Below the pieces are notes generated by a model. That model had not been told where the DNA came from. It saw only the letters and a program-made list of their open reading frames with translations, and ran no database searches. DNA of 64,000 nt from Ophelia neglecta (taxonomy: Eukaryota). A program made the translations under genes and the position numbers. The stretch lies in contig OZ260666.1 in assembly GCA_965285935.1 (NCBI GenBank), positions 35,712,001 through 35,776,000 of the forward strand. The letters are read 5' to 3'. Shown one piece after another: positions 1,759 to 43,200 of this stretch (the first letter of the stretch is position 1; every line of letters starts with the position of its first letter).

Positions 1759-4056
1759 GTCTTTCCATTTACATTAGTATATAATCAAGCTATGGTGATC
1801 ACTCATGCAGGGGAAACGGTGCAGGCCTTATTTGGGACCAAATCATTGGCAGGACAGGGTATCAACGACAAGTTCATTCTCAGACGGCCTCAGCTGGAGT
1901 TTACATGGCAAAACGTAGGTGAATCAGTCCCTCCACAACAGGACCCTCATTCCCTGAATAACAGAAGTGGATAGCTGCAGACAATTCAAATTCGTAGATG
2001 AGAATGAAGAAGATTATACGCTCTTTCGTCTAACGAAGAGGAGGTTTTGCCTATTTGGTGGGGTTGGGGGGCCCACTGGGACATTGAGTGGAACGAGGTT
2101 CATACCCGCTACCTGCTATATTCATTTTCCTCTTCGAAATTCCTAGAATTACCCTGCCCCACTCACGACTCTTAATCTCTCCCCGGTAGAATACAGCCAG
2201 GCTGTCTACTCTATTACAGATTTGTTGGGATATTGGAAGGCATTTTTATTAAAGCTGGGGGATTCACAAGAGACCAAGAAAAGGCCCCAGTAGTTAAAAG
2301 CCGATCCTTTTAGTTCTTCCACACAATGGAAACGGAATGGAAATCAAACCCCACTGCTCAATATTACTTTAATATTTGGCTATTCCATAAGAGGTGCCAT
2401 AATATTTGGTTATTTCGGATTAATGATTATGCATATTCTGCAGGATAGACACTCCTGTTATTCACTGTATGCAACCGGGACCTGAGAAATTTCCATATAC
2501 ATAAAGATTTTTGCATGGAAAGGATTCACATTTATCTTTTTCTTTCAATACATTCGTCTTCTAGTTCAAGGCTTATAGACTTTCATATGACACCATAAAC
2601 TCTGCTGCATTATCGCCATAGACATATGACCATAGCAGCTTCAAGGGCACGCCTTATTTCCTGATGCCCTCCATAAATTGTCACCTTAAGCCTAGATGAA
2701 GTACCCAGTGTCTCCCTGACATGTATATCACCTGTGTAATGAGACCTGCCAGCACTCAGACACAACTAATAAATCAAAATTGAATAATGGGCTGTTTTGC
2801 CGGCCTGAGCATGTTAAAGCTTTCTCAAGTAATATATCATAGCATTACTCAAATTTCTTCAAGAGAATAGCACGAACCATTGAATTTCATAATCAAGAAA
2901 TACCATTTAAATAGAGAAACTTTCGATATTGAACTGCATGCTAACATGGACCCTCGACAATGTATAAGCGTTGAGAAATCTTCCCTTACTTTCCATATAT
3001 TTCGCCTCTGTCTAGGTATTGTGCCTTCAGAAAGTGATCTTTGAGCTGGAGTCGGTTGACATGCTGAGACGTCAGACTTGTTGTGACAAACACAATTGTC
3101 AGTGTGGAAGCTCATTAAAGGCCACACGTACCGTGTTGCTTAAAGGGCAAATGAGATACATCCCAAGTCTCAATGGCGTCGCATTTCTGTGTGCCCCACT
3201 GTAAGTTATTAAATCTATTCCGTGGTCCCACAGATATGTTATATGAGTTGTGTTTATCACTGAGAGCTTTCCTATAAACAGTAACTGGGAGGCTGAAAAA
3301 GAACGACGTGACTGAGGAAAGAAACGCGAAAAACGATTAAATATTTATGGCAGGTGGCCATATACTTAAGCCTGGCAGTCTGTTATAAAAAAAACAATAT
3401 GTGTTTGGAAAGGAGTTCGGCGGGCTGTGTGTTTACGGCGAAAGCGAAAGCTTCGGCGAAAGCCGAATGGCCTCTTAAATTGAGATAATATGAACACAAT
3501 TATAACCCTACCCTTACCTATTTATATCAAAAACAAAAATGAGATGTCTGGGTTAGGGTTGGGTTATAAAATAACTGATATTTTTTTATTATTGTGTCAC
3601 CGATGCTGGTTTCGCCGAAGCTTTCGCTTACGCCGTTAACACAAAGCCAGTTCATCGACCTTAAAAAATATTTAAAAATCTGAAACCAAAAAAGTATTTG
3701 TCTGCCTTTTTAATCCAGCAATGGTTAGTGAACCAATAGGTTTTTTTCACTGAGCAAATTCAGTATCACACAGGCACCCTCCGTGATAAAGATACACCAT
3801 ATAGGACTAGTTATATGTCTGTTGATAACACTTTTAATGGAGAAATCATGAGCATACGTTGTATTTAAAAGAAAATAAACCTTTGCCGTTGTTACTATGC
3901 CTAAATAACATCTTGTTTGGCTCTAGAATAAGTAATCTTGAGGAGATGCAGACATTGGGACTGTACATTCACGATCTCAACATGTATGACAGCAGTCGAG
4001 ACATGGTAATGGCAGGATGGCAACACGCCTCCCGCTTGGAATACTCCATCGAAAAG
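1759..4056 (+). CDS. sGC exons encoding the H-NOBA/PAS domain (1759-1914, 3016-3200, 3927-4056)
   Basis: [18 protein letters not shown]...[14 protein letters not shown] / [13 protein letters not shown]...[10 protein letters not shown]...FLCAPL / [33 protein letters not shown]; canonical splice sites with matching phases. Confidence 0.93.
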
Positions 4057-7000
4057 GTGAACCTCTATAGCTGTACGCTTTATCAAATGGTTGGTAAGCA
4101 AAATATGTTAATTAACTGACTGGTTCCGTAAGTCGATTGTTTTTGCCGTTGCTGTGGTAGATATATTATTTTTATTATATATAATATATATTATATATTA
4201 TCTACAGTACAGAAAACGGGAGGGGATACCTCGCAGACAAAACACAATCATTAATATAAAATATTCAATTATTTCGGCGAGAGAAATCATGGGGAACCTG
4301 CTGCTACAGGCACACATACGCAATCCCCAGTTTCCTAAAAATAAATAGGTTTTTAAAGCAAATAAAAGAATAAAGTATAAAAACATAAAGTTGATACCAC
4401 TTGCAATGACGATTGATAGTTAATTTTCAACGTTGCGAGTCACAGCACAATACAAACTAATCAGGTGTTAAATTACGACAAAAATGAAATAATCCCGAAG
4501 GAATTCTAAGCTCTCCCATAATTATAGAGACTGAAAAAGGAATTGTTCAATTAACACAAGAAAAACAGGGGTGGAAAAGGTCCCAGCATACTTAAGACGA
4601 AAATGGTATTTAATCTCCTAGATATTGCATAGAACGATACAAGAGAGTTTAGTATATATTATATAAATGTATATAAAGGCACCAGTTGCTCCTGTTTTGC
4701 CACAATTTAATCGAACAAAGTTAATGGAATATTCTTGACTAATTATTTTTTTGTCTGCCGGGGATTCACTCCTGTTTTATTTTTCAAGCTGTACGGCACG
4801 TTTGTCGTATGGAAGAACCATTTTAATTTGACTGTAGTAGCGGTTTGATAAGTAAGTTTATTCACATGTCATGGGTTTTTTTAGTGAATGGCAATAAGAT
4901 ATTTCGTTGAGCTATTCAAACGTTACTATGTTCAGCTGGGCAATGAACTACATAACATCTGAAAGGAATTACTCATGAGCTGCTTGCTTTTTTGGGTACA
5001 TGCACATCTATAAGCTGGTAATCATACCCTCAATGCTGATGTTTTGGGGTACTTATCGGGACTAAATTGCTAGGACTAATGCAAGCAACAGACTTTCACT
5101 ACGTTTTTGGCTTTATGATATCCACTGAAGGTTTTTACACAGAATCCAGGCGTTTTTTTTTATTGCTGGGAATGAATGATGCGTACTTGTTGTCAAACTT
5201 TGTAATCTCCAGTAAAATAATGCTAATTTGAAATAGAGCATAGCGTTCGAATAGCCCGTCGTCGTTGGGGATTTTCCAGAATGGCTCCAACGATAATCCT
5301 CTTGACTGTTATAATGAGAGCGCCTCAAAGCTGATCCATCTAACCGGTTAACCAATAACTTAACATTGATTATTTTTCACTGCTTTGAAGTAAAACATAT
5401 CATCTCTTTGTCCTAGCAAATAGAAAAGAGCAAGCAAATCGCTGAAAATCTGCGTATGTTGGACGAGTGGCGTCGGCGAAGTGACGACCTGTTGTATTCG
5501 ATGATTCCGCGTCAGATTGCTCTCCGGCTGAAAAATGGAGAGGATCCGATCAACACCTGTGAGGTAATTACTAATAAGCTTTTGAATGCCGACATCAATT
5601 ATGATTGTGAATCAAGCAAGTTCTTGAAATGTTGTGAGGCATCACCTGATGACACAGACCTCCATGTCAAGGCAGGAGGAGAGTAAAGGTCCCCACTTCA
5701 CAGCTATTTGAATCCAATCATCTAGAATTTGGTGCTCATTTTACAACTTAAGCTTTGTATTTACCTTCGGTTGAAAAGGTCTAGATCTTTGGGTGGGAGA
5801 ATTGTATTACACTTTTTTTTTTTATAAAAACAGTTTCAGCAAACGGAAAAGATGAGTTAACATACTTCTGTACATGTAGCGGAACTGATTTTGAACGTTA
5901 CGTCATGTTCGTCGCGTATCCTCCTTGAATCCCGAAACCAAAAACACCCCTCAAACGGATATGTTCCCTACAGGTGGTGCTCATTTTCACTGTTCAGCGG
6001 GGATGACGTGACAACCGCCAAACTGACTCTTATCAAAATTAGACTTTTCGAAAAGTAAAAATCTTACGCAAAAAGTCTTACGCCTCTGCACTCTCTTGAT
6101 ATTAAACTTAGTTTCTTGGGAAATTTATTTTAATGAGTGAACATATGTTGTTATTTTTAACATTAGTTAGAGATCTTGAGTGAGTCAATACATTAGTTTG
6201 CTGCATGGTGGTATAGTGTAGAAAAAGAAGTATACGATGTATTAGATGTATTTTCTATTATGTTGATATCCCTTTTCTTAATTTTTGTTTTCCATTTTGG
6301 AGAACAGTCCATTCTGTTGCTCTTAACTTTGCACTTGGTAATACATGAAATATGACTCTACTCATTTTGGTACCGTATTTAACAGTCTTCTATTGTGTTG
6401 TTAATAAATGCAGGCTTGTCAATTTTACGATTATGGGTTCATTGGCAATTTCTCACAATAATGGGAATGTTCAATATAAATACCATCCACACACTGAAAT
6501 CGACACAAATGCCTTGATTTATACAGACGGTGGAAGTCCCTTTCTCTCTTGGCCTCCTAATAGTCACTTTAGTTATCCATCAGACAAACTCTCTATCCAT
6601 TAGCACATCTCTGATCAACTTGCACAATTTGCACTATCTGTCCAACTCAGTTTCCATAGTATGGTAATGGACAGTACTACACTACCAATGTCTAGATATG
6701 GTGTCCAAAAGGAGGTGCCATGTAGTCAAGCATTGTGCATTGCTATTCTGATGAACCGCTATACTAAATCCCGAAATGTAAGCACACAACCAAAATGGTA
6801 TACTGTAAATTCCAGGTAATGATCTCGTTTTTTTATTCCAAATCATAGACTGTGTCTTGTTTACGGCAATCCGTTGTGGCTTCAATTAGTTTAGACACAA
6901 TAATAATAATTTAAGTAAATTTCCTGACACACAAGTGACGTTCAAAAAATGTCCCATCTAGTTATTCGGTAAAAGAATTCTGCGTGACAGAAACCCAATG

Positions 7001-10000
7001 TGGGTTCGCATGAAAGTTATTTGCATTTTTTCGGGCTTTCCTCTGGCTTTAAATTGATCAAATAGACCATACTTTTCAGTATTTGTCCTTTTATTCCTAC
7101 TTTTTTTATTATGCATTTAGAAAAATCTGTTGATAGGTATAATAGCAGTCGGTATGTTATCATGATATTTTCGGGGAAATGACTGCCTCTTTCGAGACAA
7201 TATCCAGTTATTGAATTATTGTCTTATTATCCTCTTATCACTAACGCTAGGTTTGTGTAGTTGTGTATAATATGTTGTTAAGCATAAGTACAGCCATAAG
7301 ACGGTACTAGATTGATATCTACATAACCAGTTGTCCTCATCACCCGCCTAAGCATTTTCCCCATACTATGGGAAAGTCAACGTTCCTAAATTGGCCATGA
7401 TTCCTCCTATATTAAGTATTAAGATGGTTGAGGCAGCCATGATCAAAGTCACCTTGGAAGACGAGAATAAGGTGAAGCCATGCTTTCTGATAAAAGAATT
7501 TATCAATGGTGATAGATTCTGCAATTTCATTAAAATCAAATCAAGCATTCGTACCGATATGAAATAATCTGACACTGGATCTTTAATTCTTCCCTAGCTG
7601 AGGCTTTTGAGCCATTTTCAATAAGGGGCTGACCTAATGTTGCTCCTGTCGTCGGTTTCCTGCCCTCTCTGTAACTGAGCGTTTACTTTATTGAAAGACG
7701 GCTGCAAATAGCTCTTGCAATAAAGTGACAAGCACTGGAATACTGTCATATCAGGAGCTAGTCAGTGCAGTATTATATGACTTCGGTGGCCTACACCCGC
7801 TTTTCGTCATTTTGTCTGTGCATTTATGTCAACCCTTGTCACAAGTTAATCTAGAAAATAAATTAATTGGTATTTGATTTTGAACATTGATCCCATAATT
7901 TGATTCGTTTTATCTATTCCTCTCGCTTCAGTGAATCGCTGATAGTTTCTTCGTGTTAGTGCAAATTGTAAGCCAGTACCTAATGTGGTGCGTGATGAAT
8001 GGTCCTGCTGCACAACGGGCTTTGTGTTTTATTAAAAAAAAAAAACAGAAAAACTCGTTACTTTATTGTTTAAAGGTTCCCTTACTATTACGAAAATTTG
8101 CTGCTTAGAAATAATTTATCTGAAGACTAATGGTTAGAAATGACCAACGAATAATTTGTTATAACTTGTTATCTTAAGTATAAAACATATATTTTACTTT
8201 CAGATAATACGCCAAAAACAAAAAGAGTTTACTCTAATCAGAATTCATAGATATAGTGACTTTTTATTACAGGTATTTGATCAAGTCACTATCATGTTCA
8301 GCTATTTGATTCACTTCAATGACATGTGTGCCAACATTCCCGCCTTGAGTCTGGTGGAATCTATTAACTCAGTGTTTACCGTCTTTGACGCAGTCATCGA
8401 CAAATACGATGTTTTTAAGGTAATCTATGCATATTTGATTTGTCACGACGTTCTATTAATACTTTTACATTTATTTGTGAATCTACCATGCCTGTGCATG
8501 TGCACTGATCGAATTCACACTTTGAGACAATTGCCTAGACACAGAACAAATCTTTGCATATAAGCAAATGGAAAGGGAAAATTGGATGTGACTCTTTCAT
8601 TAGCCGCTATTATCACCAAGAAAATGGAAGATGGTGTCAATATTGGATTGCACATTCTTGACATGGCACATTTGGTGCCTTATATTAAGTGTCTAGGGGC
8701 CAGGTTTAAGTCACGTATTCTTTTCTTGCTAAACGCGCTTTTTATTATAAAATAAATGCGGTGTTAACTGAGGGCGGAGTTATTTTGCACACGTTTTAGA
8801 GTCCTTTTTGCGTGTATCATCCTGCCATCCCCTCCCCCCTACCCCCCCCCCCCCAGCCATAGCCACTACCTTCACCACTTCCACCCCCGGATAAGCTACC
8901 TAGGTATGTGACGCCGAGCTTAAGCTCACAGCTGGAGTGTTGTTACTCCGATTGCTGGGCACTGATTGCTAGCCTTGCATATAGAACATGAATGGTTTGC
9001 ACTTTTTATGTTTTTGTGAACAGCGTTGTGGTTGAAAGGTTTGCAATTAATTGCCAACACGTGTGTCTAGATAAACTTGAGTATTTTATATGCCAAGGAA
9101 TGAAATGAATATGGTTTGGAGCATTTTTTTCTAAACAAGACCGGTGTAATTTGTAAGAATACTTCGAAACAACGACATGGAAGTGCTTTTTGCGATGCCT
9201 TTGGGATCGCCTTAGGCAGGTTGTTGAAATAAGATTTATTATCCCTCCCCTCTGGGATTTTGCAAATTCCAGTGGCACCCATTGGGAGGGAATAGGTCAG
9301 TCAAGTTCAATCAATCAAATTAATTTAATCAATCAAAGTAGAATAGTTTTAAGCCTTTCTTCCCTTGCTTGTTAAAAAACAGAACCTTGGATGGTGTTTG
9401 TATGTCTGGATAAGCTTAATTCAATTTAAATAATTGTATCCTGGGAGAGTACAACCAGAAGCTTGAATCTAAACGAACGATTAAACGATCAATGACCACA
9501 GAGCCGGCTTTGATATTGGCTTAAAAATTACTATAGAGAGCAAATGGTGCACAGGGAAACTGTGTACCCTTAATGCATGGGAAAGCTCATTTGGTTCATC
9601 TACTATACATTAAATAAACCATTGTTGTGTCAGCAATTTGTGGTATATTGGTGTTATAAATGGAAATTTTGAAATCTAGGACATGCTGGGCGAAGGTAAA
9701 TAACAAAATAGTAATGGGAAATGAATTATAAATGATAACTAAATAAATTTTCTGATTTGTTCCTTTCATTATATATAATATGGTAAAATTGAATATGATT
9801 GTGTAATTTTCACTGATGTCGTACATTCGCTCCATTGCTCTTATTTATGTTTGTCAACTGAATGTCATGAGATGTTTAACTTGTGCCCTGGATATCACCA
9901 CAGGTGGAGACCTTGGGTGATGCCGTGTACATGGTGGCGGGCGGTGTACCAGACCGTCGCTCCAATCATGCCCGCAGTATAGCCGCAGTGGCCCTCGACC

Positions 10001-12981
10001 TAACTAACAAGGTGCCTCAGATCTGTCTACCTCATCAGGACATGCTACAGGATTTCTTACAAATACGCGTCGGTGAGAAACAGGACTAATGTCTTCTCTT
10101 TCATGACCCTTTTATAACGTTCTTAGTCGTTATTTCTTCCTCTGTGCCTCGTTATGAATCCAAAACAAGACTGCGAACAGCTGTTTCGTGACAAGTGTGA
10201 AGAGAAAGATAATGGTGCTCAGAGATTCCTTGTTTCTTTTGGTAAACAGCCATGATCTTTTACAGTGTCATTGCACCAAATTCCCTACTCGCAAAACTTT
10301 CAGGTGCTAAATTCATAATAAAGCTACGACTTGGAACAGAATAATCACTAATATTCTTATCTTATCGCACAATTTGAACATAGTACATGTGTGTTTAGAA
10401 CCAGGGTTGCTAACTGATAAACCAACGTGAAGTTGCATTACACTTTTACGAGTGAACCTGCATTACGGGGTGCAGAGTAACACACCATTACGTGAGTCAG
10501 CATGGCACGCAAATCATTGTGGGCCCAAAGATTTTCTTTTAAAACTGACCTTTCTGTACTTCAGCCAAGGGTAAGCCTTTATTGGTATTTAAAAAATCTA
10601 CCCTAAAACTACAATGGCACAAATACTTGATAAAACTGTATTTTTATAACTTATTTGCCACTGGTGTCATATTCGTCCGAGATGCAGCCTAGTTTCTATG
10701 CCACTGACGTTAGTTATTAAACCACTTAGTAAAGATCGTTAGAAGATTAATTACAAGTATAGAACAGTAGATTTGTTTGAAGGGGGTTGCAACTTAGAAT
10801 TCCCGAAATCAGACGGATTTTCGTCAACGATTTTGGTTTGTTTTTTCGATCATACACTGTTTTTGTACACTTGTATACATTTTTACGAACCTGTATTATA
10901 TTCGTTGTTATACAAACTATTAAGATTTTTATGATGGAATGCTTGAAATGACATTACTAGTTACAAATAGATTTGTTGCTGGACCCGACAAACGTCCATG
11001 AACTTAACTCTGATTGTTTCTTGTCTGTAGGTATGCACACTGGGAGTGTGGTAGCCGGAGTGGTAGGAAGGAGGATGCCGCAGTACTGTCTGTTTGGAGA
11101 CACTGTAAACACTGCCAGTCGAATGCAAACCTACAGTGAGGTAAGGCTGGAGCATGACGAATATCACGTCTGCCATCCTCGTGGTTGGCAGTTATCCATG
11201 CTCATTCTTCTCTTTTTATTAAACGTGTACTAGCAAGCTCGGAACACGGGTTCACCCAGCCCCTAACGGCCTCTTGTCCATCCAGCCGCTTATGGCTCAT
11301 ATCTCTGGTCCCTCTAACTGCTGATGGCTTAGTCCTCTGGTTCATTTAGCCGCTGTTGGTTCAGTCCTCTGGTCCATCTAGCCGCTGTTGATTCAGTCCT
11401 CTGGTCCATCTAGCCGCTGTTGGCGCAGCCCTCTGGTCCATCTAGCCGCTGTTGGCTCAGTCCTCTGGTCCATCTAGCCGCTGTTGGCTCAGTCCTCTGG
11501 TCCATCTAGCCGCTGTTGATTCAGTCCTCTGGTCCATCTGGCCGCTGTTGGCTCAGTCCTCTGGTCCATCTAGCCGCTGTTGGCTCAGTCCTCTGGTCCA
11601 TCTAGCCGCTGTTGATTCAGTCCTCTGGTCCATCTAGCCGCTGTTGGCGCAGCCCTCTGGTCCATCTAGCCGCTGTTGGCGCAGCCCTCTGGTCCATCTG
11701 GCCGCTGTTGGTTCAGTCCTCTGGTCCACCTAGTCGCTGCTAATTTATTCCTCAGCCTGGTCTTCATAGTCTTTGATGATTTAGTTCTCCTGTTCATCTA
11801 GCCGCTTATAGCTCTCTGGTACATCCCTTCTAAGCTCTTTACTATATTCATCATTTTAACATCATATTTATATTCGTCCTCACCAATACTACAATACAAA
11901 GTTATGATTTGTAATGATTATACTTAACAAAGACAAATATAGTTTATATTTAATCATTTTCTTCTCCAAAATGTGGAGTAGTATTGTGATAAGTAACAGA
12001 CTAACACTGTAACCTATCTTTGATTTAGCTGATACTACTCTAAGTTTCACAGTAGTTTCTTTAGAAAATTGACATCACCAATAAACCTCAACAACCATTA
12101 TATTGATAATTTGAATTCATATTGATTTAGTTTATGCCTCAAAACTTTAACTAGCCTATTTGGTATTGGAGAAAAAGCGGTATAAATGGTTGATTGGTAA
12201 ATGTTAAGAGTAAAAGTAGTTGTACAAGCATAGGGCCCACAGTCTGCCGGGGCAGTGGTCTCCTTGAATAAAGAAAATGACATCAATTTTTCCAAAACGG
12301 CCAGAAGAGGGAAAAAGTGTGTCGTTTTTTGATAACGTCTTTCATATACGTATATATTAATGAAACTGTCACACTTATTGCGCGTTCAATTCGCTGGGTT
12401 ACCAGTACTTGGCAAAAAGACATCTGAACTGTGTAAAAGTGAAGCTTACCACTTGGTCAGTACGGTGTCTTGGAAATAGTGTAATCTGTATGGGTGCCAA
12501 TGAACTGGGTCACCGCATCATGAAAAAACTGATCAGACGACATTGATATTCCAGACTATAAAGACATTCTATAAGGCCTATCTAGTGTGGCAATATAAGT
12601 AAAAACGGGAAGTAGGGGCGGCTCCAGAAAATTGATACAGAGTGGGGAAGTGGGCGTGGCTCAGCTCTCGGAATGAAAGACAAGCTGAAGATAGGGTGTA
12701 CACACCCACAAAGAGGGGGAGGGGGGGGGGAGATTATATTATATTATGATAGCTTGTACTGAGTTAAACCACGACACACTCAATAGGCACTGTGGTTTAA
12801 ATAAAGTTTAATAGTTGTTTTATCAACATATAGGGAAAACTTGCGTGCACGCAGGGTATAATTGTGTAATTGGGGCATATTGCATCTTATCCATGTAAAG
12901 CGCTTGTGATCGGTGTGTCCAGACTATGCCCTTTCGTATATAATAATAATAATGTTTATTATTATTATTATTGTTATTATA

Positions 12982-13014
<33 letters not shown>

Positions 13015-16000
13015 ATTTTTATGTCGACACTAAGCCACCAGAGAACACAAGGGTACATATGTAATTTAAAAGTAGTTACCACGAGCTCTCCACAACTGCC
13101 CAGAATTTGTTCAAGGCAAAATTATGAAACTTGAAGAAACATTTCCTGAAACCGATACTTTTTTTTCTTTTTATCAATGAGCAATGTTGTAAACAATGGC
13201 ACAGTGTCATGCTATATGTGAAGTGTGCAATTTGTATAGTTAATGCTGAGCTGCTTATCTATAAATGCATGTATCCTGTTAGCCTGCGTTCAAATATTAC
13301 TAATGAATGCACAACAGGTCCTACTTATGCCTCATTTGTCTCGAGGTATCAGTCCCCTATTTGCGTACATGTTTATGCGCTTCTTAAAGCATAATTTGAC
13401 TATTATATGAGAGAGGCTGATGTATGAACATCTGTTATACAAATAGTTCTATAACATGGTTATACTATCACACTAGCGAATAGAGAAATTAAAGTCCTAC
13501 GTAAGTTACGCAAAGTTAATTACGTGTTAATTGGGAAGTACGTTGCGGTTAATTACAAAGCTGGAGCCTGAGCAAGCCAATGCAATCCGTCTCCTGTAGT
13601 CTCCCCCTAACTTTTTAGGAGTATCGGGTTAATACGATTCATACAGGATGATGTGTTACACTGATTGGGTAATGTTGATTGGGTTTTTTCTGTATTTCCT
13701 GAATACACGTGTTGCCTTTTACGTTAAGCCGTTTCCGCCCATAAATTTGCCATGTCACCCACTTGCAGTCTTGGCGTGTTTTATTACCTCTTCTGAAATT
13801 GATGACGTTTATTGCCTTACATAGTGCAATCAAATAAAAGTAAATTTCAATGATACCACCTTCGAATTCTAGTGTTCTGTAATTAAATTCTCCTCACAAC
13901 ATGTTGTCAACGGTGTCAATGGTTGATAATTGATAAGTAATTGTTGCACAATTAGCATTACTGTTATAATTAGTGCCCGTGAGAACATTAGGAGAGAACA
14001 ACATTCTGTGTATATGAATAGAGTTGTTCACATCTGGGCTGCCAGGATCCTTCCGCGTGACCACACCGGTTCGGCTGCTGTAGCTTGCCGACCGCCGCTG
14101 TGACACGCACCTAGCGACCAGAAGTCAAAATCAATTTATCACACTGGTCGTCTGCTCATAAAGGCTTTTCAGTGAAAATAACGCCGCTGCCAAGGCTACC
14201 CAAGGCTACACTGCCCCAGAATTGTGACAAATCAACACAAGTTGTATAACTGAATTACGTTTACAGGCATGGAAAACAATTTAATACTCTATAATTATTC
14301 GCCTTCGAAGGAACGCTTTATCTCTGTGAAAGATTCAAAACACGACTACCAGTGACCGGGGAAGGAGGAGTGGACAGGATCATTTTAGTAAACCACGGTT
14401 TTCTGTTTGGATTTTGATTTAAAGGTAAGTCATTACAGCTTTTAACATCGACATGAGAGTCAAATATGGCAAGTTCCTGAACTGCTCTCTTTATTAATTA
14501 TGTTTTCGTGTTCAAACTATGTAAGGTTATTCCCTCACAAGAAATAAAAATACTCAAAAACTGTCAGACCTAAGTAAGCAAGCCATTCTTTTTGAAATCA
14601 ATAAGATATATTGTATCTAAAGCAAATCGTGGAAAATTCCATAACGATAAATTGAGACAGGGGTAAATTTCACCGGAGCTCAATATTTTTGATTAAACTA
14701 ATTATTAATATTTAAACAGCAATTATTTAAAACAACTCTTGACCCTGGAATTGTCGCGACTCGTGATTATTAACGTTAACACAATCTACTGGGCTATGGG
14801 ACTTCATATAAAGCTATATTTTTAACCTTTATATGTACATGGTGATGTATTTAATACGTATATTTATCCATAATGAAACATTATGAGCGCAAAATAAGCC
14901 CACCAACCCTCGTGATTACTGCACGCATGTTATCATGGTGATGGTATAAGAACTGGTTGCCTGTAGACAAACAAAGCATTTATATTTGAATAAACTGCAG
15001 TTAAGCTCACTTAAAATGTTTTTTATGTCTTTATAAGTAGATCGTTTTCCAACTTCGGCTTTTTGTTTCTTGGATTCAGCCTTGTTAACATAGAATTATG
15101 ACATGTTTGAGTTCTTGGTTGTATTTTAGTGAATGTAAACCACCCCAAAAAGAGGTTAACGTGTTTGTTTGGGCAATAAACAATAAAATATGACACGGTG
15201 GCAGGAACAAACGTACAAGAGTGGCGACAATGAAATTCCCTTTAAATAGTGAATGCGGTAACGAGCATTAGCCTTACGTGTATTTTTTTTTCGTACAAAC
15301 AGTAATATAACTTATGAATCAACATTCTCATAAAAACATCCACATAAATCTGGAACTTACAAGACGTGGTCTCATTTGTGTGCTTTAGTGTGCATTTTTT
15401 AAAAGTATTGCCTACGTTATATTAAATCATTGTTGGATGTTCGCCACTTTCGCCTTACGAGCAAATTGGTTCATGTAGGGGCCTCTATCCGACAGTGCCG
15501 ATATATCCACGACCAGGCCTTCTATAGAGGGACAAAGTTACATATGTATACATGGTAAATGTTTAAATGTGGCCGAGTGGCGCGACGGTTTTTCATTGAC
15601 CTATATAGCCTATAGCAAGGTCATGGCACTTACGGTCTTTTTTCTGCTTTTTTCTCTCTACGTTTTTCTCGTGAACTGTACACTATGGGCCAAACAATTG
15701 CTGCAAATAGACTTCTTTAATAGTTTACATGCAAATAAATAAATTACTATAAACACGAGAAGTGTCGACCGCGTCAGTATACCAAAGTAACATGAGTACG
15801 TTTACAAAATATATTTCTTTAATCTTAATGAGCCAAATGCATGAATGAATGTTCAGATTATGAAAAAATATTACCCCAGTAACCAAAGTTTATATACACC
15901 CAACAGAATTTAGAAACCTGCGTTAAAATTGATGTTTGAAGGTCAACACCACGGTCATGGCCGTCCAGCGTATATCACAAGGACAGATATTTTAGGCTAC

Positions 16001-19000
16001 CCATTTCGATTTTGTGGATCCCTTGCATATCAATTCAAAGACTGTTCACCCTAAAGAAACACTCGTTGGTTAGTCGCAAATTACATTTTTATTTTATTTT
16101 CAGAATAGAATGGCATACGGTTATAGAAAAGTAAATAGCAACCAGTTGACCCACATCGTAGACCGGCTGACCTCGCCGACGCGCGCCAGTAGCGCGTGGC
16201 ATCACGACTACGACGCTCAGGAGACGCACCTCAGCTACCTCCGGAGACGTGACCCACGATTCCAACCTCAGCGCAGCGTCAGCCCCAAGGAGCTAGACCA
16301 TATCGTGGTCCGGCTCACCAGGCCCACCACAGCAAGTACCGCTAATTGCTGGAATTTCGACAACCAAGACGCGAACCTCGCCTATCTAAAAAAGGTCGAC
16401 CACTGCATTCAGATCCCATTCCGCAGCAAATCCGTGGCCTGCACACTGGAGAACTCGGACCCGAATGGAGGTAGTCCAGTGACGCGCAAGTCCCGAATTT
16501 CCATCAACCATTTGCCTACATCTCGCACGGCCAGTGCCACACCCAAGTACGGTTTCTGGGCCACCTGCGGCCGTTCGGTTAACCCGAGCCAGCTGATCGA
16601 CGCCGCCGCAAGGCTGTCACGCCAGCAACGGTCCCGCTACAGCACCCGTGAGACGAGTCGCTCGGCCGCCACCAAAAGAGACATGTCTCCCTGCTCCGTC
16701 GAGGAAGAGGAGGAAGTGGCTATCAAACTCAGCTGCGATTCTTCTCAGGCTCAATTCAAATCTGCTCCAAACGCCCATACGAACAACAACCAGGAAGTAC
16801 TGGTCAGCTGAGAATTTTTTCTCGTATACATTTTAGACCACCAATAGGTCCTGGTGGCACCAGGTTTTGGCTGCTAAGTGTATACAAGTTTGCTTGTAGC
16901 TTCGAAGGTTTTTTGCCAAAATTGTACACACTTTTAATTAGTACATTTGGTAAATATAATCCACAGGCCGTGGACAGATAAAACACTGAAGGTTTTTTCT
17001 TCATTTTATATATTCATATTTACTATATAATGTTACAAGTGTATGTTCGATTAACTTGATGAAGTTGTATGTTTCCAGTATGCCCACATAGTATTAAGAT
17101 ATTATAATTATAGATAATGGCCTAAGTAACTTTATGTTTATAATGTCTACATTCATTGTGTGTTGGATAACTTAAATGACTAGCTGCATTTCCAGCAAAC
17201 AACCATGTACATGTATAAGTATGTTCACAATAAATTTCACCTTCGCACATATTTGGACCAATTGAGAATTGTCATTGCTTACACATTTTAAACTACATGA
17301 AGGTCGACGTGGCTGTACCCAGTACCCCTGATACGTGTAATCATGTCAATTGGTTTTGATCGTTACTGAAATCATCATTATACGTGGTTTTTTTTTATCT
17401 GTGTATTGGTTAGCTATTCACTACCGATGACTGGTGCTCCGATACCCCCTTTAACAAGGTCAGGGTAGCGACAAAACAAAGTCTGTGTGAAACCTGTGGG
17501 TAACATCTGCTAATAATTTATATACAGCTTGATTAAACAAAAAGAAATACCACTTGGAAGAATCCAGGCGTTATCGTTTGGCCTCTGGGCTGCAGGTATA
17601 TGCCGAGAGGAGGAGATATGCCGAGAGGAGGAGGGGGTGGTAGTGGTTGGGGGGGGGGGGGGGGCTAATATATCATCATGTTTTAGTGATGTTCTTTACT
17701 ACAGCAATGTGTCCAGCTTGTCCTGTATTTGAAAGTTATGTTAGCGTCATAAACGCTTTTGTGATCATATTCATACAGAAAATATGCGCAGCCAAATCAT
17801 TTGAAAGCAAATTGCAAATTTATTATTGTTTATTGAGGCTGGCTGCGTTACATTTAGGCGCATGTAAGTTCAAACATGCAACATGTGCATGACCCAACAG
17901 AAGCAAGTGGAATGTTTGGGTTTTTGTTTCTTAGCGACAGCAAAGAAATACAATAGTAGTAAGTATGTTTGTAACAAATAGGACACAGGCATATATAGTA
18001 GTTTGTACATAGGAAACAGACAGGAAACAAAATAGAAGTGTGATTTTATGTAAAAGAACAGTAGTGAGTGTGTATGTTAAGACAATGAAATATAGATAAC
18101 CTAGTGAATCATGTAACACGAGTAGCGCCGGTGTATGGTTGGTTGGCGGTTGATGGCTTTACGTGGCCTGTGGTATTAAAAATGAAATAACAATTCAACG
18201 TTCCCACTTCTTCTCTGAAAGAAACCGTGCAGATATATGTGTATTTCTACCTAAGAACGTGTTGTGGCCGCCACGTTTACTTTTGCTTATATGATATTAT
18301 TTAAAGGAATCAAATATATCGCATCTACAAAAGGTATACTTATTCACAATTCAAATTCAATCATACGATTAAAAGTTTAATATAGGCACGTGCATGCATT
18401 CCAAATTGAAAGGGATGAGAAAAAGGATAGTCCTGAGTACATTATTTATTCTTTTCATTTTAGGCTGGTAGAATCCATATCAGTGAACCTTGTAACCAGT
18501 GTCTCAAAGGATCCCAGTTCGTCACAGTATTTCGAGGAAAAGTCAACATTAAGGTGTGTTTTGCGAAATAAATACATTACGTGAACTTGTCTGGACTTGG
18601 TCATGCATCAATATAACTGTGTGTAAAGATATGATGGTTTTAAGATTGCCCTGTGGGATACAGAGAGCCTGACTATTCAAGCAAATTGACAATTGATAAA
18701 TCTGGCGGTTTTGTTATATTATGTGGCTAGTTTATAATGATTAACGGTCAGACGTTTCTCTCGATATTAATCAACTGGCTTGATACTGAGGGTTGAATCA
18801 GCTCTGTACTTGTTGGTCAGTCTGTATTTTGGTGGTGCTCAGAAAAAAATATAAGCCAGCTAGAAGAAAGTTTTTTATTTCTGTGAGTATTAGCAAACCA
18901 CTCACTAATTTGGTAGTAATGTGCCAACGTCGGGCGCCATATGTTGCATACAGGCTAAAATTATAGGATAAAAAGGGCCAATAATTTGTCCATTAGTCAC

Positions 19001-22000
19001 GTTGTTCTTTATTATACATTATATAGGGGTAGGGTCAGGTCAGGTTTGTCACAGGAAATGAATATTGATGTGGATAACACGGTAACCAGTGCCTGCATAG
19101 GATACTATGCAGGGTCAACGATTGTTTAATTTAAAATGGTTGAACTTAAGCAATTTGTTTTTAATCTATATTTCCACACTACTACTGCTACCATACTACT
19201 AGGCGTCATTTGAGCACCACTCAAGAGGGGGGGGGGGGGGCCATAATCTCTTCCTCTCAGTTAAGCATACTTATAACTACGACCAAATTCGTCTCATTCT
19301 AATTTTCTAACGAATGTGTCTAATTGGCGCGAGTGGAAACTTTCCAGTGGCCGTAATAAGAAAAAAATAATAACACGTTCTACCCTTGCAGGACCGAGTG
19401 GTGTGCCAGGTGACAAGTCATACAGAAATTTAAAGTAGTACGCAGAAAGTGTACGAAATATATTGCAAACTGTTTTCTGTTGGAAAATTTTTATATTACA
19501 GAACCTATGTTGTTTTTGAAAGATTTGCAAGACATACTTTGATTTTGTGAACCGCATAGCGGAAGATATGTGACTGCTACAGTCTTGTCTATTATACCTG
19601 TATAATGATTACATGTATGTTAGTTAAGAGTGGTGAAGGGCATCTAAAATACTGGTTTTTGTCATTTATAGCCCAGGACTTCTATGCTTATATTAGTGTG
19701 TCTGTTGTGTTAAATGAACATTCAAAAAAACTATTTAAAATGCCAAATAACTATTTTCCAATATGGCCGCTCATGGTCCAAACACAATTGCTGACATTCA
19801 ATTTTAAATATTTAGATATTTGATACAAATGATCACATTTGGTATCTCAGGGAAAAGGCCAGATGAACACCTATTGGTTGGCAGGGAACAGAGATGATCC
19901 CCAGATAAGACAAGTCTGTAGAGAGCTGAAACAGGAACACACTCGTAATCTGTCCCTCTTGACTGCCTCTTCCAGGTACGCATTCACTTCCAGACAAAAA
20001 TAACTAAATAGCTCCATGGACATATTTTGGTATAATGGGACGAATGTAGGGTTTTCCCAGATTAGTAGATTAACTTAGAGGTCGGCATAGAGGTCCGCAT
20101 TTCTTGGAAAGTCTTTCCTTAACCGATGCCAGCGGTACATAATATATTCCTTAATGTGCATATCTCTCTACAGAAATGAAAGCTTTTTTGACTTCCGACG
20201 GGCGCGGAAGGGCAGTGAAATGCAAATTAGTTTTATGTTTGAAGAGGCTATGAGACGCGAACGAGAGTCGTCGTCCTCGGCGGGTACGGGGGTGACCACT
20301 TCAGATGTGGCCTCGTCCTCACATCGCTTCTCGGACGGGTCTCGGACCTCCTCCATCACCAGCATACCCCCCATCATCAGCGAGGAGGGTAAGACCGTCA
20401 TATTTTTGTTTGTGTCATTGTGCCGGCCAATCTAGCCTTTTCTACTGTAATTATCCATAGACGTGTACTAGCCGCATGGATTGTTCACATGTCGGCCAAT
20501 GTGCCAAAATACAGACAACTATACCCCTGTAACAGTACAATTATACACTTGATGATAGGAACTTTTACAGTGTATATATTTAAACAATATTGTAATTTAC
20601 AAAGACTATATTTTCAGAGTGCCTCTGCTTCAGTGTGCGAAGCGATGACTCCGATTCAGAAACGAATTCCGGGTCACACGAAAGTAGTAGTAATCAGTCA
20701 TCGTTGTTCGCGAGTAGTGGCAAAAACTACTTACACCCACATCCTCAACTCGCCTACCTGTCTCCGGACCAAAGTTGGCAGACCACTCAGTATATACTCA
20801 AGGAAACCCTCTCTTCATCCTCACGAATGCCAGGCACTCTGCAAGGAAACCAATTTATGAAGCCAGGCAGAAGAGTGTCTTGTCCTTTTGCTGAAGAATT
20901 CCAAGAAATGCTGAAACAAAAAGGTCAAGGTGGTTTGAATCTACCAGATATCCACAATGTGGACTCGGCTCTACATAAACCCGAAGGAGACAACCTGATC
21001 AAACATACCACAGAATTTGGTGCAGACCGTTCAAGTGAAAACAAAGTAGATAAGGTGACATTTGAATGTCCGGTTTTTACACTATCTCCATCGATTTCAG
21101 CGACGGATATTGAACCAGAAATTGACCCTTCACCATTGGTGGCACAAGGTGATCTTTCATTCTCGCAGATTGTTCTAGAAGAGCTGAAACCCCCCAAAGA
21201 ACATAGTTGTTCCATAAAGGTGCACAGAGGTGATCAGGCAAACGAAGAAGCTGGAGTTATTGACATTCCGGACGTCAAATCTGATTGTAGTAAGACTTCT
21301 TTCTCTGCTCCTCCATCAATTGCTGATAAACAGAAACCCCAAAACGCCCATACTCCAAAATTCTATTTATCTCCCCAAAACAGCAGCGACATCCTCAATA
21401 TTCATAATGATGCAAAGGAGAGTGACCTGCCTAGTTTGACCGGGACTGGGGACCTTGGAAGTCTTGTGGTGTCGACCTTGTCACAGTTTGACTCAATTCA
21501 CTATGCGGAAGTCCACTCGTTTCCTCAGAAAAAATCCGTGCCCAAAGACCCGAGGTTTTCTTCTACATCGTGTTTCCCTGATATATTCAAGCGGCCGCAT
21601 TTCCCAAAGAAAACCTGTATACACGGTAAGTTGTTGAAACAGTTGCCCAAGAGTGCTCCCGTGACAGCCCGAAACAGTTTGCAGAATGTGAACGGTGAAG
21701 AGAGCGAAGAGGACCCGACTGACCTCACAAAAAGTCATTCAATCACTAGCAACGGCTTCTTTGTCCGCTCTTCGACGTCACTAATAACAGCCGATATTCA
21801 TTCTGAACATAATAGGTCATCTCCGCGAAGCACATTGCAGACGATCAATGACTTGATTAAGGATGGCGACAAGAACGTTACCAGGGTCACCAGACCTATT
21901 GATATACCTGGCAAACCATGTATAAACCCATACAACAATGCAGTGCCTTTCATCCAATGCCCACGGCCATTCCGTTCCAGTTCCCTTCAGGCCCAAACCT

Positions 22001-22215
22001 TGCCGAAGATGCCTTTGCTGAATGTGGGAAATGCGGCGGAGATGGAGCGCTGTGGCAGCGCCTCGGCCTTCCTGGAGAGTCTCCAAGTCAACCAGCACTG
22101 TCTGGAAGAGGGGTCGAGTGTGGAGAGCGACATCTCTGATCTCAATGGGGCTCACGAGGAGAATGGGCGAGAAGGAGAGCCAAAATCACTGAGGAACAGG
22201 ACAACTTCCTGCTGA
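1759..22215 (+). CDS. Soluble guanylyl cyclase subunit (beta/atypical Gyc88E/89D-like), 5'-partial, 11 coding exons in window
   Basis: Frame-consistent GT-AG exons: 1759-1914, 3016-3200, 3927-4056, 5417-5563, 8273-8419, 9904-10072, 11031-11140, 18464-18553, 19851-19975, 20174-20388, 20618-22215 (3072 nt = 1023 aa + stop). Motifs: VFPF..., [21 protein letters not shown] (H-NOBA); [15 protein letters not shown] (coiled coil); [54 protein letters not shown] (class III cyclase). H-NOX exons presumably lie upstream of the window. Confidence 0.95.
3423..3648 (+). mobile_element. MITE copy 1 (~226 bp, ~39-bp terminal inverted repeats)
   Basis: ggctgtgtgtttacggcgaaagcgaaagcttcggcgaaa ... tttcgccgaagctttcgcttacgccgttaacacaaagcc; internal taaccct/gggtta inverted motifs; second copy at 25233-25457. 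Confidence 0.85.
5417..5563 (+). CDS. sGC coiled-coil (signalling helix) exon
   Basis: cctag|CAA...GAG|gtaatt; [49 protein letters not shown]. Confidence 0.93.
8273..19975 (+). CDS. sGC catalytic-domain exons (8273-8419, 9904-10072, 11031-11140, 18464-18553, 19851-19975)
   Basis: [11 protein letters not shown]...[12 protein letters not shown] / [16 protein letters not shown]...QIRV / [37 protein letters not shown] / AGRIHISE...RGKVNIK / [10 protein letters not shown]. Confidence 0.95.
11280..11810. repeat. 32-bp minisatellite (cagtcctctggtccatctagccgctgttggct), ~13 well-conserved units plus degenerate flanks
   Basis: Head-to-tail units with no spacers; the 96-nt (3-unit) period is visible in ORF 11452-11637. 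Confidence 0.95.
12940..13016. repeat. (TAA/TTA)n microsatellite
   Basis: taataataataat...attattattatt runs; these produce the spurious poly-Y and poly-I ORFs. Confidence 0.9.
14110..14430 (+). promoter_or_regulatory. Candidate promoter / 5'-UTR exon for the nested gene
   Basis: RFX X-box-like half site CCTAGCGAC at 14110-14118 in a locally CpG-richer patch; consensus donor AAG|GTAAGT at 14424/14425 not used by any sGC coding exon. Confidence 0.35.
16110..16811 (+). CDS. Nested 233-aa basic repeat protein (RLTxPTxAS repeats) inside sGC intron 11141-18463
   Basis: GC-rich ORF with coding-like composition in an AT-rich intron; strong acceptor ttttattttattttcag at 16103, 6 nt before the ATG; two clear internal repeats ([15 protein letters not shown] / [15 protein letters not shown], each followed by W..D.Q..L.YL) plus degenerate copies; AATAAA at 17229-17234. 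Confidence 0.85.
   Translation: MAYGYRKVNSNQLTHIVDRLTSPTRASSAWHHDYDAQETHLSYLRRRDPRFQPQRSVSPKELDHIVVRLTRPTTASTANCWNFDNQDANLAYLKKVDHCIQIPFRSKSVACTLENSDPNGGSPVTRKSRISINHLPTSRTASATPKYGFWATCGRSVNPSQLIDAAARLSRQQRSRYSTRETSRSAATKRDMSPCSVEEEEEVAIKLSCDSSQAQFKSAPNAHTNNNQEVLVS
20174..22215 (+). CDS. sGC C-terminal Ser/Pro/acidic low-complexity tail exons (20174-20388, 20618-22215)
   Basis: Phase-compatible with the upstream exons (2 then 1); the last exon contains the 526-aa ORF 20635-22215 and ends ...RNRTTSC*. Confidence 0.8.
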
Positions 22216-22744: not shown

Positions 22745-22750
22745 AATAAA
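22745..22750 (+). terminator. Candidate polyadenylation signal of the sGC gene
   Basis: AATAAA ~530 nt after the stop codon, followed by T-rich sequence. Confidence 0.45.
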
Positions 22751-40291: not shown

Positions 40292-43200
40292 CTAGAAAAA
40301 AAAGTTGAGCAAAGAATCATGTTTAAACTTGTGTAAACAGATTGAGTATTTTTGTTGTCCTCCATAGTTAGTCTTTATCGACCGTAAGGGCCTGGACAAA
40401 AAGTAAAAGTAATTAACTACCGTTGGGTCTAAAAACTCTTATATAAAACTATGATAAACGCACAATATGAAGGTGTGGTCGATCTTTCTCAGCTCTGTAT
40501 ATTTGGTGTGCTCGTCTCCCATCTTTTCTATTGCGGTCGTCAGTTTTTTTGTATTCAGTAATAACTGCTCCTCGAAATCGTCGAGAATCTTGAGTAGGGG
40601 ATCGCAGAAAGCGTTCACTCCCTCCGCTATATATTTAGACGCTTCGCTCCTGACAAACACGCGTAAGGGCATATCTCGGTTCCACACCCTCCAATATTCT
40701 CGTGCAGTGTCGTGGTAACGTTCGGGATTCTCAAAGTTTGGGGAAGGGATCCTCCAAATTTTCATGGTTTTTGACTTGTCGTAGAAAGTGTTCGGTTTAA
40801 GGTACTTCTGGAGATGACTGGCCTTTTGGAAGGCCGTGTGATAGTAGTCTAGCAGTTCGTGTCTCATCTTTGTAATTCGCTGTCGTAGTGGAGAGGTCAG
40901 GCGCGACTGTATTCGGTCCACGAAGGTATTTATCCGGGTCAACACCTCCGAGCTGGACTCGGCAGGGTCGAAATTGCTTAAGTAGCCTAGTTTTGTCATT
41001 TGTGCATGCGCGTAGCGCGTTCTTAGGCTTTCCATAGCCCGTTCGTCTTTCTCTATGATGCCTGATTCGGTGGTGAAATTGAATTGGTCTCCTGCGAATG
41101 GACTTGTTTCAAATGCATAGTCATCTGCCTTTTTATCAGCACCTTCAACCCATTCCATTGTTTTGTCCAAAACGTTTCGATACTCGTCCAAGCATGTGGT
41201 GATGTATTTGGGATCTAGGAAGTAAGCATTGGTGTATTCTTCCAAATTTTCTTTGGTGGTGTGCTCATCATTAGAGCGGGGGTTGGGATTTTGCCAATCG
41301 GGTGCCTCCTGCAGAACAGCAGCTATCTGTTTGAGGGTCGCGGACAATTCCTTCATCCTTTGTAAACATTCATGGTTACTCACGGCAAATGTTACTGGCA
41401 GGAAGGCCAGTAGGTCCTTATCCTCATTACTTTTGATTGTCAAAGAACTTTGGTTTGTGATTTTCAAGTGAAATAATTCGAAATTCTCGTGCGCCAGCAA
41501 AACTTTCATCACCAGTGACGAAGTGATCGCATTGAAAAATGGTCTTAGTTTGGCCATGTTGTTGTCTTTCATTGTTATCATCTGTCTTAGCTCCTGCAGA
41601 GATTTATCTAATTCTTGCATATACATACGTACTAAAATTATCCCGTCATCGTAGAATTTCATGTAGGCTTCCTTGTGTTTGGGTAAATCACCCATGAGAT
41701 CCCCCATGTCATCCCGGAATATCTTAAGGAGTGTGCCCGTGGCAGTCCACACTTTGGCAAAGCTAGATTTCTCAACATCGCCGAGGTATGTTTTGGCAAA
41801 GCGCCGCATGTTTTTATACTGCTTTATTATCTCGGTAATCATCAGCATATCGGTGGAGAAGATGGACGACTCTACCCTCTGGCGAGATTCCAAGGCATCG
41901 TGGTACTTCTTCAACAGGAGGTCCTATTTGGAGTAAACAGTATTATAATATGGCTGGCTTATTTAGTTTATTTTCATGCATGTTGGGTTCAACAGTCTTG
42001 TTTCAATAGGGAAACAAATATAGTCTTATACGTGTTCGTTGTGTTCCCACGTCTGACGAGCCCAACTACTCATACTTTGATAGGCCTATACTGCTGACAA
42101 GATCGTCAAGTATGTATGAAACGCTCAAAGGCCTACTACAATACTACACACACATCCACACACTTTACATAAGAGTTTTTTTTGTGATTTATATGGAGTG
42201 AGTTATTTTACGAATCTGAATAACCAAAAACCACATTGTGTCTTTACCGCCCAGCGGACAGACATGGCTCTAACGTACTTAAAACCGAAACATTAGGAGT
42301 GAAATAAGAATAGTTGGTATAATGTTGAATAACTTGTCAAGCATTGTCGTTCTGAAAAGTCTATATGTTTAGTTTTTTGTTTGATTTTTTATTAACAAGT
42401 TTTTGGTCATTGCGATGACAATATCAGATATATATTTTTAGGCAATTGTTAAATTTCTTGAGCGACCTGCTGGTGGTAAGGGAGAGTGTTTGGTTCACCT
42501 TGTTCTCTGTGAGGATGTTGTCTACACTGAGCACGGAGAGGGCCGCCTGGGAAAGCCCCGGTTCGTAGATCGTCTGCTTACACGGCTTGGGACACTCGCA
42601 GCGAGACCGAGACGACGACAGTTTCACAGAATCTACATATACATTTTTTTTATTAAAACGAAATGTCAAAACACAGCAAAATACCTGTTTAAATGCTACA
42701 ACAAATAACGATCAAGACAAATGTCTTTCTTTTCAGCGATTCAGTTTTGCTTCATGAGGATTTGTGAAAGACCATGCTGACTTACTAATGGAGGGGATGG
42801 CGCAGGAAAAATACATAGTGAGATTACACACTGGCGGGTTATCTGGCATGGAAAACAAGAGACAAATATAAATATAAATTAAACAATAAATACATTTCAA
42901 AATGAGAAAACGAGTTCACTTGCTCTTGCTTGACACACACATATATATATATAATATTTGTTTCAAGTGTAGAAAGTTCCTTGCAACATTTTCTGATCAC
43001 ACATACCGATGGATCTCGCGAAGCCCGGCATGTAGGCATCCCTGCAGCCACACATCTCGTTGATCTGGGTCGTTTCACACTCTCGAATACATTTGGAGTA
43101 AACATAGTCATCCCCTGTGTAATATTCCAATGTATGGACCCCGCAGTCACCTATGGGCCGCGGTAAATTCTCAGCCTATAACCAACAACCAGTATTTCTA

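Follow-up and report, generated by a model that had tools for sequence, protein, structure and literature searches.

Pairs in which a complete gene lies in a long intron of another gene and in the same orientation as its host have been described before (PMC11694760, PMC3192792), so that the layout reported here is in itself unsurprising; statements on these and all other papers cited refer to the accessible parts of the sources. A catalogue of mammalian nested genes describes same and opposite orientation as about equally frequent and ties nesting to exonization and premature polyadenylation of the host (PMC11694760), and transcriptional interference has been described for same-strand host/nested pairs (PMC3192792). 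A related anatomy is known from CSB-PGBD3 in intron 5 of ERCC6, where a frame in one exon, with an acceptor directly before it and an AATAAA behind it, is in frame with the preceding host exon (PMC2268245). Among cyclases, Drosophila Gyc88E and Gyc89Da/Db are NO-insensitive oxygen sensors that act in heterodimers (PMC10248080, PMC1435932). A literature search that took in few subscription papers returned nothing on the present locus or its repeat motif, including nested genes in annelids or lophotrochozoans.

The window analysed here (the whole stretch of 64,000 nucleotides) lies on contig C9 of a 762-Mb animal genome, which is likely that of an annelid, as the named homologues nearest to the genes studied here are annelid proteins. 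Our analysis suggests, with a probability of roughly 0.8, that positions 16110-16811 hold an independent gene (the guest) nested on the same strand in the intron 11141-18463 of a guanylyl cyclase gene (the host), with its own promoter, spliced to 16104 and ended at 17229. In contrast to the mammalian pairs (PMC11694760), this is an invertebrate locus known from DNA alone, in which a late intron splits a catalytic domain and the acceptor of the guest is in frame with the host. The anatomy resembles that of PGBD3 in each of the points named above. However, PGBD3 is a transposase with a shown and conserved fusion (PMC2268245), whereas the guest belongs to a cellular gene family and has neither a fused homologue nor outstanding terminal repeats.

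The host, an atypical soluble guanylyl cyclase

By its sequence the host is a Gyc89D-like atypical soluble guanylyl cyclase with H-NOX, HNOBA and cyclase domains that is closest to proteins named 88E or 89D, and its named relatives ('89Db-like' or '88E-like') match it at 50-63% over the H-NOX exon. Searches by tblastn with orthologous proteins and a phase check gave 13 coding exons with 1,236 codons. The two H-NOX exons, located by HNOB/HNOBA searches and tblastn, precede the window (G000 C9:35701943-35702187 and 35704577-35704970), and the other eleven are found on the plus strand of the window. Exons 3-8 (1759-1914, 3016-3200, 3927-4056, 5417-5563, 8273-8419 and 9904-10072) encode the HNOBA domain, a coiled coil and the first half of the cyclase domain, and exon 9 (11031-11140, GMHTGS...MQTYSE) ends in phase 0 at codon 561. 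After the 7,323-nt intron with the nested unit (11141-18463, phase 0 at both ends), exons 10 and 11 (18464-18553, AGRIHIS..., and 19851-19975) supply the final strands of the cyclase domain, and exons 12 and 13 (20174-20388 and 20618-22215) run to the stop, with the AATAAA of the host at 22745-22750. An acceptor about 40 nt before the host ATG makes it likely that the host begins with a non-coding exon. Two atypical paralogues at C9:75.8 Mb seem to break at the same codon as the intron 11141-18463, which is therefore likely older than the guest.

The heme histidine and the YxSxR motif are present in the host. The first aspartate of the cyclase domain binds metal, and subunits without it need a partner. 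In the host and in 7 of its 9 full-length orthologues this residue is replaced by tyrosine (phenylalanine in one of the others, a Cys-Tyr shift in the other), and the paralogues L054, L059 and L061 keep the aspartate. The host cyclase thus probably needs a partner subunit. Gyc89Da/Db likewise combine H-NOX, HNOBA and cyclase domains (PMC1435932, PMC10248080), a likeness in sequence, whereas the host differs from them in that about 640 residues follow its cyclase domain as a tail (20174-22215). This tail is mostly encoded by one 1.6-kb exon, the last exon gave no Pfam match, and the longest of the nine full-length orthologues has 889 aa in total. The choice of query mattered for the orthologue search: a 49-aa cyclase exon recovered host orthologues in 0 of 23 cases, whereas the H-NOX exon did find them.

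Some further observations were made on related genes and on the surroundings of the host. A cyclase paralogue (L060:5072-5533; G000:C1:101312072-101312533, plus strand) has an intact exon preceded by three tandem 104-nt copies of its start, all of which contain a stop. Two tandem soluble-cyclase-like genes (G000:C7:59646870-59669776, minus strand) have one open frame each, of 444 and 468 codons, with H-NOX and HNOBA. A 5.5-kb tandem repeat with three frames open (L012, G000:C9:35652399-35657910) lies about 45 kb ahead of the first coding exon of the host.

Signals of the nested frame

The entire coding sequence of the guest lies in one host intron and on the host strand, between exons 9 and 10. 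A T-rich pyrimidine tract with the acceptor AG at 16102-16103 (feature 16080-16108, plus strand) is followed by the codons AAT AGA ATG with the ATG at 16110. From 16104 the frame stays open for 235 codons up to a TGA at 16809-16811, and an AATAAA follows at 17229-17234. The acceptor with its phase 0 relative to exon 11031-11140, the own stop and AATAAA, and a consensus donor at 14424 had all been pointed out in an earlier note on this DNA, and we found each of them in the sequence as described there. The single coding exon (16110-16811, plus strand), delimited by its frame, its homologues and chance tests, encodes 233 aa (26.2 kDa, pI 9.5), and 16812-17234 would be the 3′ UTR with the AATAAA at its end.

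Chance is a poor explanation for the frame: its 245 stop-free codons exceed the longest frame (194) in every one of 200 intron shuffles, and their length was reached in only 1 of 500 shuffles of its own bases. Third-position GC is 0.69 versus about 0.37 in the intron. Splice sites were ranked with a matrix trained on the splice sites of the host itself (12 donors and 12 acceptors), a small set in which one of the 12 acceptors was placed 2 nt off (20620, correct 20618). With this matrix the acceptor at 16104 ranks second among the 396 AG sites of the intron, the first being the true host acceptor at 18464; the donor at 14424 (AAG/GTAAGT) ranks first among 477 GT sites and scores above all 12 true host donors. 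Minus-strand counts give P of about 0.004 for an acceptor as strong as 16104 within 40 nt of a given ATG, and of about 0.14 for a donor as strong as 14424 somewhere in the upstream 5 kb, so that little can be concluded from this donor by itself. Another AG, 5 nt further on (16107-16108, exon start 16109), ranks tenth of 396 and is out of frame with the cyclase.

The region 14071-14424 (plus strand, left edge arbitrary) is a candidate for the promoter and a non-coding first exon with the donor 14424 at its end. A motif scan with consensus sequences for core promoters and X-boxes detected no more than an initiator-like TCAGT at 14169 and an X-box half-site at 14110, one of 16 such half-sites in the whole window. 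The segment 13950-14480 has one match in the genome. An Rfam search of the intron matched nothing, and no convincing terminal repeats were seen in it; the 5′ end of the intron is occupied by a tandem array of a 32-nt unit (11206-11813).

Taken as an independent gene, the guest would be driven by a promoter in the intron and transcribed into a two-exon mRNA of about 1.2-1.5 kb, in which a non-coding first exon, likely with donor 14424, would be spliced to the acceptor at 16104 and the transcript would end at the AATAAA at 17229. The host transcript would be spliced from 11140 to 18464 around the guest, past a strong acceptor and an AATAAA, and activity of guest and host in different cells would be the simplest escape from this conflict. 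Splicing of the guest exon to the non-coding first exon of the host, with one promoter serving either protein, would agree with the likely existence of such an exon and with the weak promoter evidence near 14100. It would require that nine coding exons and more than 26 kb be skipped, although the top-ranked donor lies just 1.7 kb upstream, and we regard it as highly improbable.

Three runs, X1-X3, were taken as DNA runs by their behaviour (even cover, no splice joints). In run X2 the 702-nt coding stretch differs at one listed site, which is synonymous, versus 29 differences in 3,219 nt of flanks (0.9%; Poisson P of about 0.013, counting one run and the sites among those listed), and this is a modest indication of constraint on the guest coding sequence. 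The stretch 14071-14464 is invariant in the contigs of X1 and X2, which is not specific, since 13724-14046 is invariant as well. No single contig of the three runs joins the frame to a host exon, as might be expected if the guest were a recently inserted, silent or decaying copy or if the region were locally mis-assembled. However, in all three runs the contigs follow each other across the region in one and the same order, the sole joint touching 16104-18464 being repeat-linked (17649). Moreover, the frame is intact with conserved start and end, the coding stretch shows just the one synonymous difference, and the guest is the sole subfamily-I copy found in this genome with six query proteins. 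A silent copy or a mis-assembly is therefore hardly credible.

The guest family and a possible alternative end of the cyclase

Homologues of the guest were found in a 90% collection (12 of 373 candidates) and in a 50% library of 1.84 billion representatives (63, of 53-630 aa, no length limit being set), which together gave 68 distinct sequences. Judged by these sequences the guest family is an unnamed, widespread group of basic lophotrochozoan proteins with two subfamilies and no Pfam model, characterized by a unit of about 26 residues in which a predicted helix is followed by RLxxPTxAS. Members with a name are known from Paralvinella (KAK2159242.1), Owenia (CAH1786917.1), Tubulanus (XP_074654361.1), Magallana (A0A8W8LG56), Potamilus, Batillaria and Mercenaria; 28 of the 68 homologues were looked up, mostly without a name, and the family might range beyond lophotrochozoans. 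The repeat pattern occurs as 139 units in 60 of 68 sequences (P0036 excluded, window protein included). Two units are found in the guest, at residues 7-32 (16128-16205, plus strand) and 56-81 (16275-16352, plus strand). The 'repeat tail' of the earlier note thus consists of these two units within the first 81 residues and a low-complexity tail behind them.

Scans with Pfam gave no significant family for the guest and no match to DUF4476 in guest or homologues, and a metagenome scan for the family pattern confirmed 0 of 134 matches. Matches in the ESM Atlas were 'hypothetical protein' clusters only (Mollusca 0.87-0.91, Euglenozoa 0.84-0.86) and serve as leads only. P0036 joins an oxidoreductase to one repeat and was put aside because it is likely chimeric. 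An assignment to lophotrochin/trochin or to another spiralian-specific gene was rejected on the accessible part of the source (34 of 37 oyster-gene rows; PMC7441323), in which neither QDANL nor, in a repeat context, RPT/KPT was found.

A tree of 39 proteins of at least 190 aa (shorter ones, the chimeras P0006, P0036 and P0092, and the six-repeat P0013 being excluded) splits the two subfamilies at 100/100 and places the window protein and P0001 in a clade of nine rows (100/99) together with P0008. A subfamily-II paralogue with CxxC is encoded by a single coding exon of 257 aa elsewhere in the genome (G000:C12:50953284-50954015, minus strand, L013), tail to tail with a 1,115-codon C2H2 zinc-finger frame. 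Its ATG is preceded at 35 nt by an acceptor with a pyrimidine tract, so that the acceptor of the guest can be explained by an intron in the 5′ UTR, which the family would typically have. In the homologue cluster P0018/P0091 the first repeat is not preceded by a Met, which points to a further coding exon upstream in that species. Searches around other paralogues of the cyclase and NCS genes (20 stretches, each of 10 kb), in 60 kb around the NCS gene on contig C1 and in the 60 kb downstream of the window detected no family members.

In 7 of the 12 closest homologues the protein starts in the alignment column of Met 16110, and one more starts a column earlier; P0002 and P0003 share the end of the guest as well as its start. 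Seven of the 12 (P0002-5 and P0008-10) are found on contigs of 891-1,166 nt, which would be transcripts. Their length is about that of the predicted mRNA, and they leave no room for a preceding 1,683 nt that would encode the cyclase part. None of the 68 homologues matched Guanylate_cyc, HNOB or HNOBA in Pfam scans, and the family is accordingly free-standing in other species. From the host side, 9 of 9 full-length orthologues (among 16 matches) continue with a strand of the (G)RIHIS type, and repeat profiles run on them gave no score above 2.2 bits. No fused guest-cyclase protein was thus found among 68 guest and 16 host homologues, a sample drawn from outside the close relatives of the species.

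The earlier note had left two readings side by side, a nested gene or a cyclase isoform without the last catalytic strands, and it is the nested gene that gains from the free-standing homologues with the same Met, while the isoform loses through the missing fusion and the normal end of all nine orthologues. Since the junctions of exons 9 and 10 are both in phase 0, splicing from 11140 to 16104 would be in frame and yield a 796-residue protein with H-NOX, HNOBA, half a cyclase domain and the repeat tail, and such an alternative last exon might have been selected as the main product. The strong in-frame acceptor ahead of the true one, the own AATAAA and the likeness to CSB-PGBD3 (PMC2268245) all point in this direction. 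Given the tyrosine for the first cyclase aspartate, the truncated form could also bind the partner that the host probably needs, and thereby sequester or re-localise it. The conserved start Met, the lack of any fusion among the homologues and the retained cyclase end argue against it; the shared phase is probably chance, at about 1 in 3, and the AG 5 nt downstream would break the frame. As the main selected product we therefore consider the isoform very unlikely. A low-level by-product of 796 aa without the last cyclase strands, made beside the nested gene, is less far-fetched, though still rather unlikely. For annotation the locus illustrates a trap, in that an in-frame acceptor in an intron of a catalytic domain does not necessarily mean an isoform, and gene predictors have twice fused this family to a neighbour (P0006 and P0092).

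Possible function and origin of the guest

The guest family is basic: of 38 homologues with at least 190 aa, 37 have a pI of 9 or more, and the family median is 9.9. AlphaFold models show short helices and no folded core (pTM 0.19 and 0.20). A sequence search of the PDB gave one match for query A1 (CD72, E 0.61) and none up to E 10 for P0013 and A2. A fold search with the pTM 0.19 model had 0 matches at E 0.001; among its five weak rows, two belong to doublet-microtubule chains of trypanosomatids (E 6.5 and 8.4; Z 2.7, rmsd 3.8, 44 aligned), which is not evidence. The repeat may resemble a MAP7 motif. Neither PDB nor Pfam searches matched the guest to MAP7 or to ciliary repeat modules, and short motifs escape such searches. 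Short-repeat proteins of ciliary microtubules (Mn, NWE, PYG, GFG and SNYG) are likewise basic and non-globular with short helix-plus-loop repeats, whereas the unit consensus of the guest matches none of the motifs named for them in the accessible parts of the sources (PMC10973386, PMC13406575). Because charge, disorder and repeat build resemble those proteins, the guest might be a microtubule-binding protein of basic, non-globular repeat type, e.g. in cilia or sperm. We offer this as a tentative reading to which we give slightly less than even odds. Members of the family would be candidates for cilia or sperm proteins specific to a lineage.

By the arrangement in other species, nesting in the cyclase is apparently not the ancestral state. 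In Owenia the cyclase (CAH1787649.1) and the repeat protein (CAH1786917.1) lie on one 40.8-Mb contig but 732 accessions apart, and in Tubulanus they are on contigs of unlike length; each species was judged by one family member, perhaps not its sole copy. The guest gene would thus have entered the intron through a rearrangement in this lineage. A different neighbour is indicated by two database models that fuse subfamily-I members to NCS-1-like EF-hand exons, P0006 from Paralvinella and P0092 from oyster. Free-standing forms of both exist: P0008, whose first 86 residues are identical to the Paralvinella model, and the 328-aa form, which accounts for 14 of the 15 members listed for the oyster cluster (the first 324 residues of P0092 match the free-standing P0035 at 319 positions). 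The two models are therefore likely prediction errors. They likely betray, however, a same-strand neighbour or host gene of NCS-1-like type, and the joins coincide with introns of an NCS paralogue in the present genome (about residues 45 and 76).

The NCS orthologue in this genome (84% to the oyster NCS exons) is an intronless gene of 199 codons (G000:C1:41563603-41564199, plus strand; L004:1174-1770). The 67 and 54 candidates that were scored included no intron-rich copy of similar identity, no NCS-1 relic was detected in the window or in 60 kb upstream (best E 0.18), and the intronless gene showed neither a poly(A) tail nor a target-site trace. An intronless gene without an intron-rich copy or a relic fits replacement by a retrogene and a move of the guest. 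The gene on contig C1 is, by its sequence, likely a retrocopy that replaced its intron-rich parent, and the guest may have changed its neighbour or host. The retrogene replacement of amphioxus SYCP1 (PMC5803294) is a parallel for this apparent former neighbour and not for the guest itself. It is conceivable, though we hold it to be unlikely, that the guest is an ancient lophotrochozoan intron guest, housed in oyster and Paralvinella by an intron-rich NCS-1-like gene and moved to the cyclase intron here, with the old host left as an intronless retrocopy, and that it now also truncates the cyclase. Switching the guest on and off would in that case tune the supply of active cyclase through the in-frame acceptor and the poly(A) site. 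If the NCS-1 link were true nesting, it would provide a dated case of a nested gene that changed hosts.

Two other regions of the window, both on the minus strand, contain further coding features. A 494-codon frame without Pfam match (40442-41923) adjoins a cysteine-rich frame (42424-42711) that presumably resembles DEG/ENaC channels, and exons encoding PAN, MAM and kringle domains are found at about 49600-57200.
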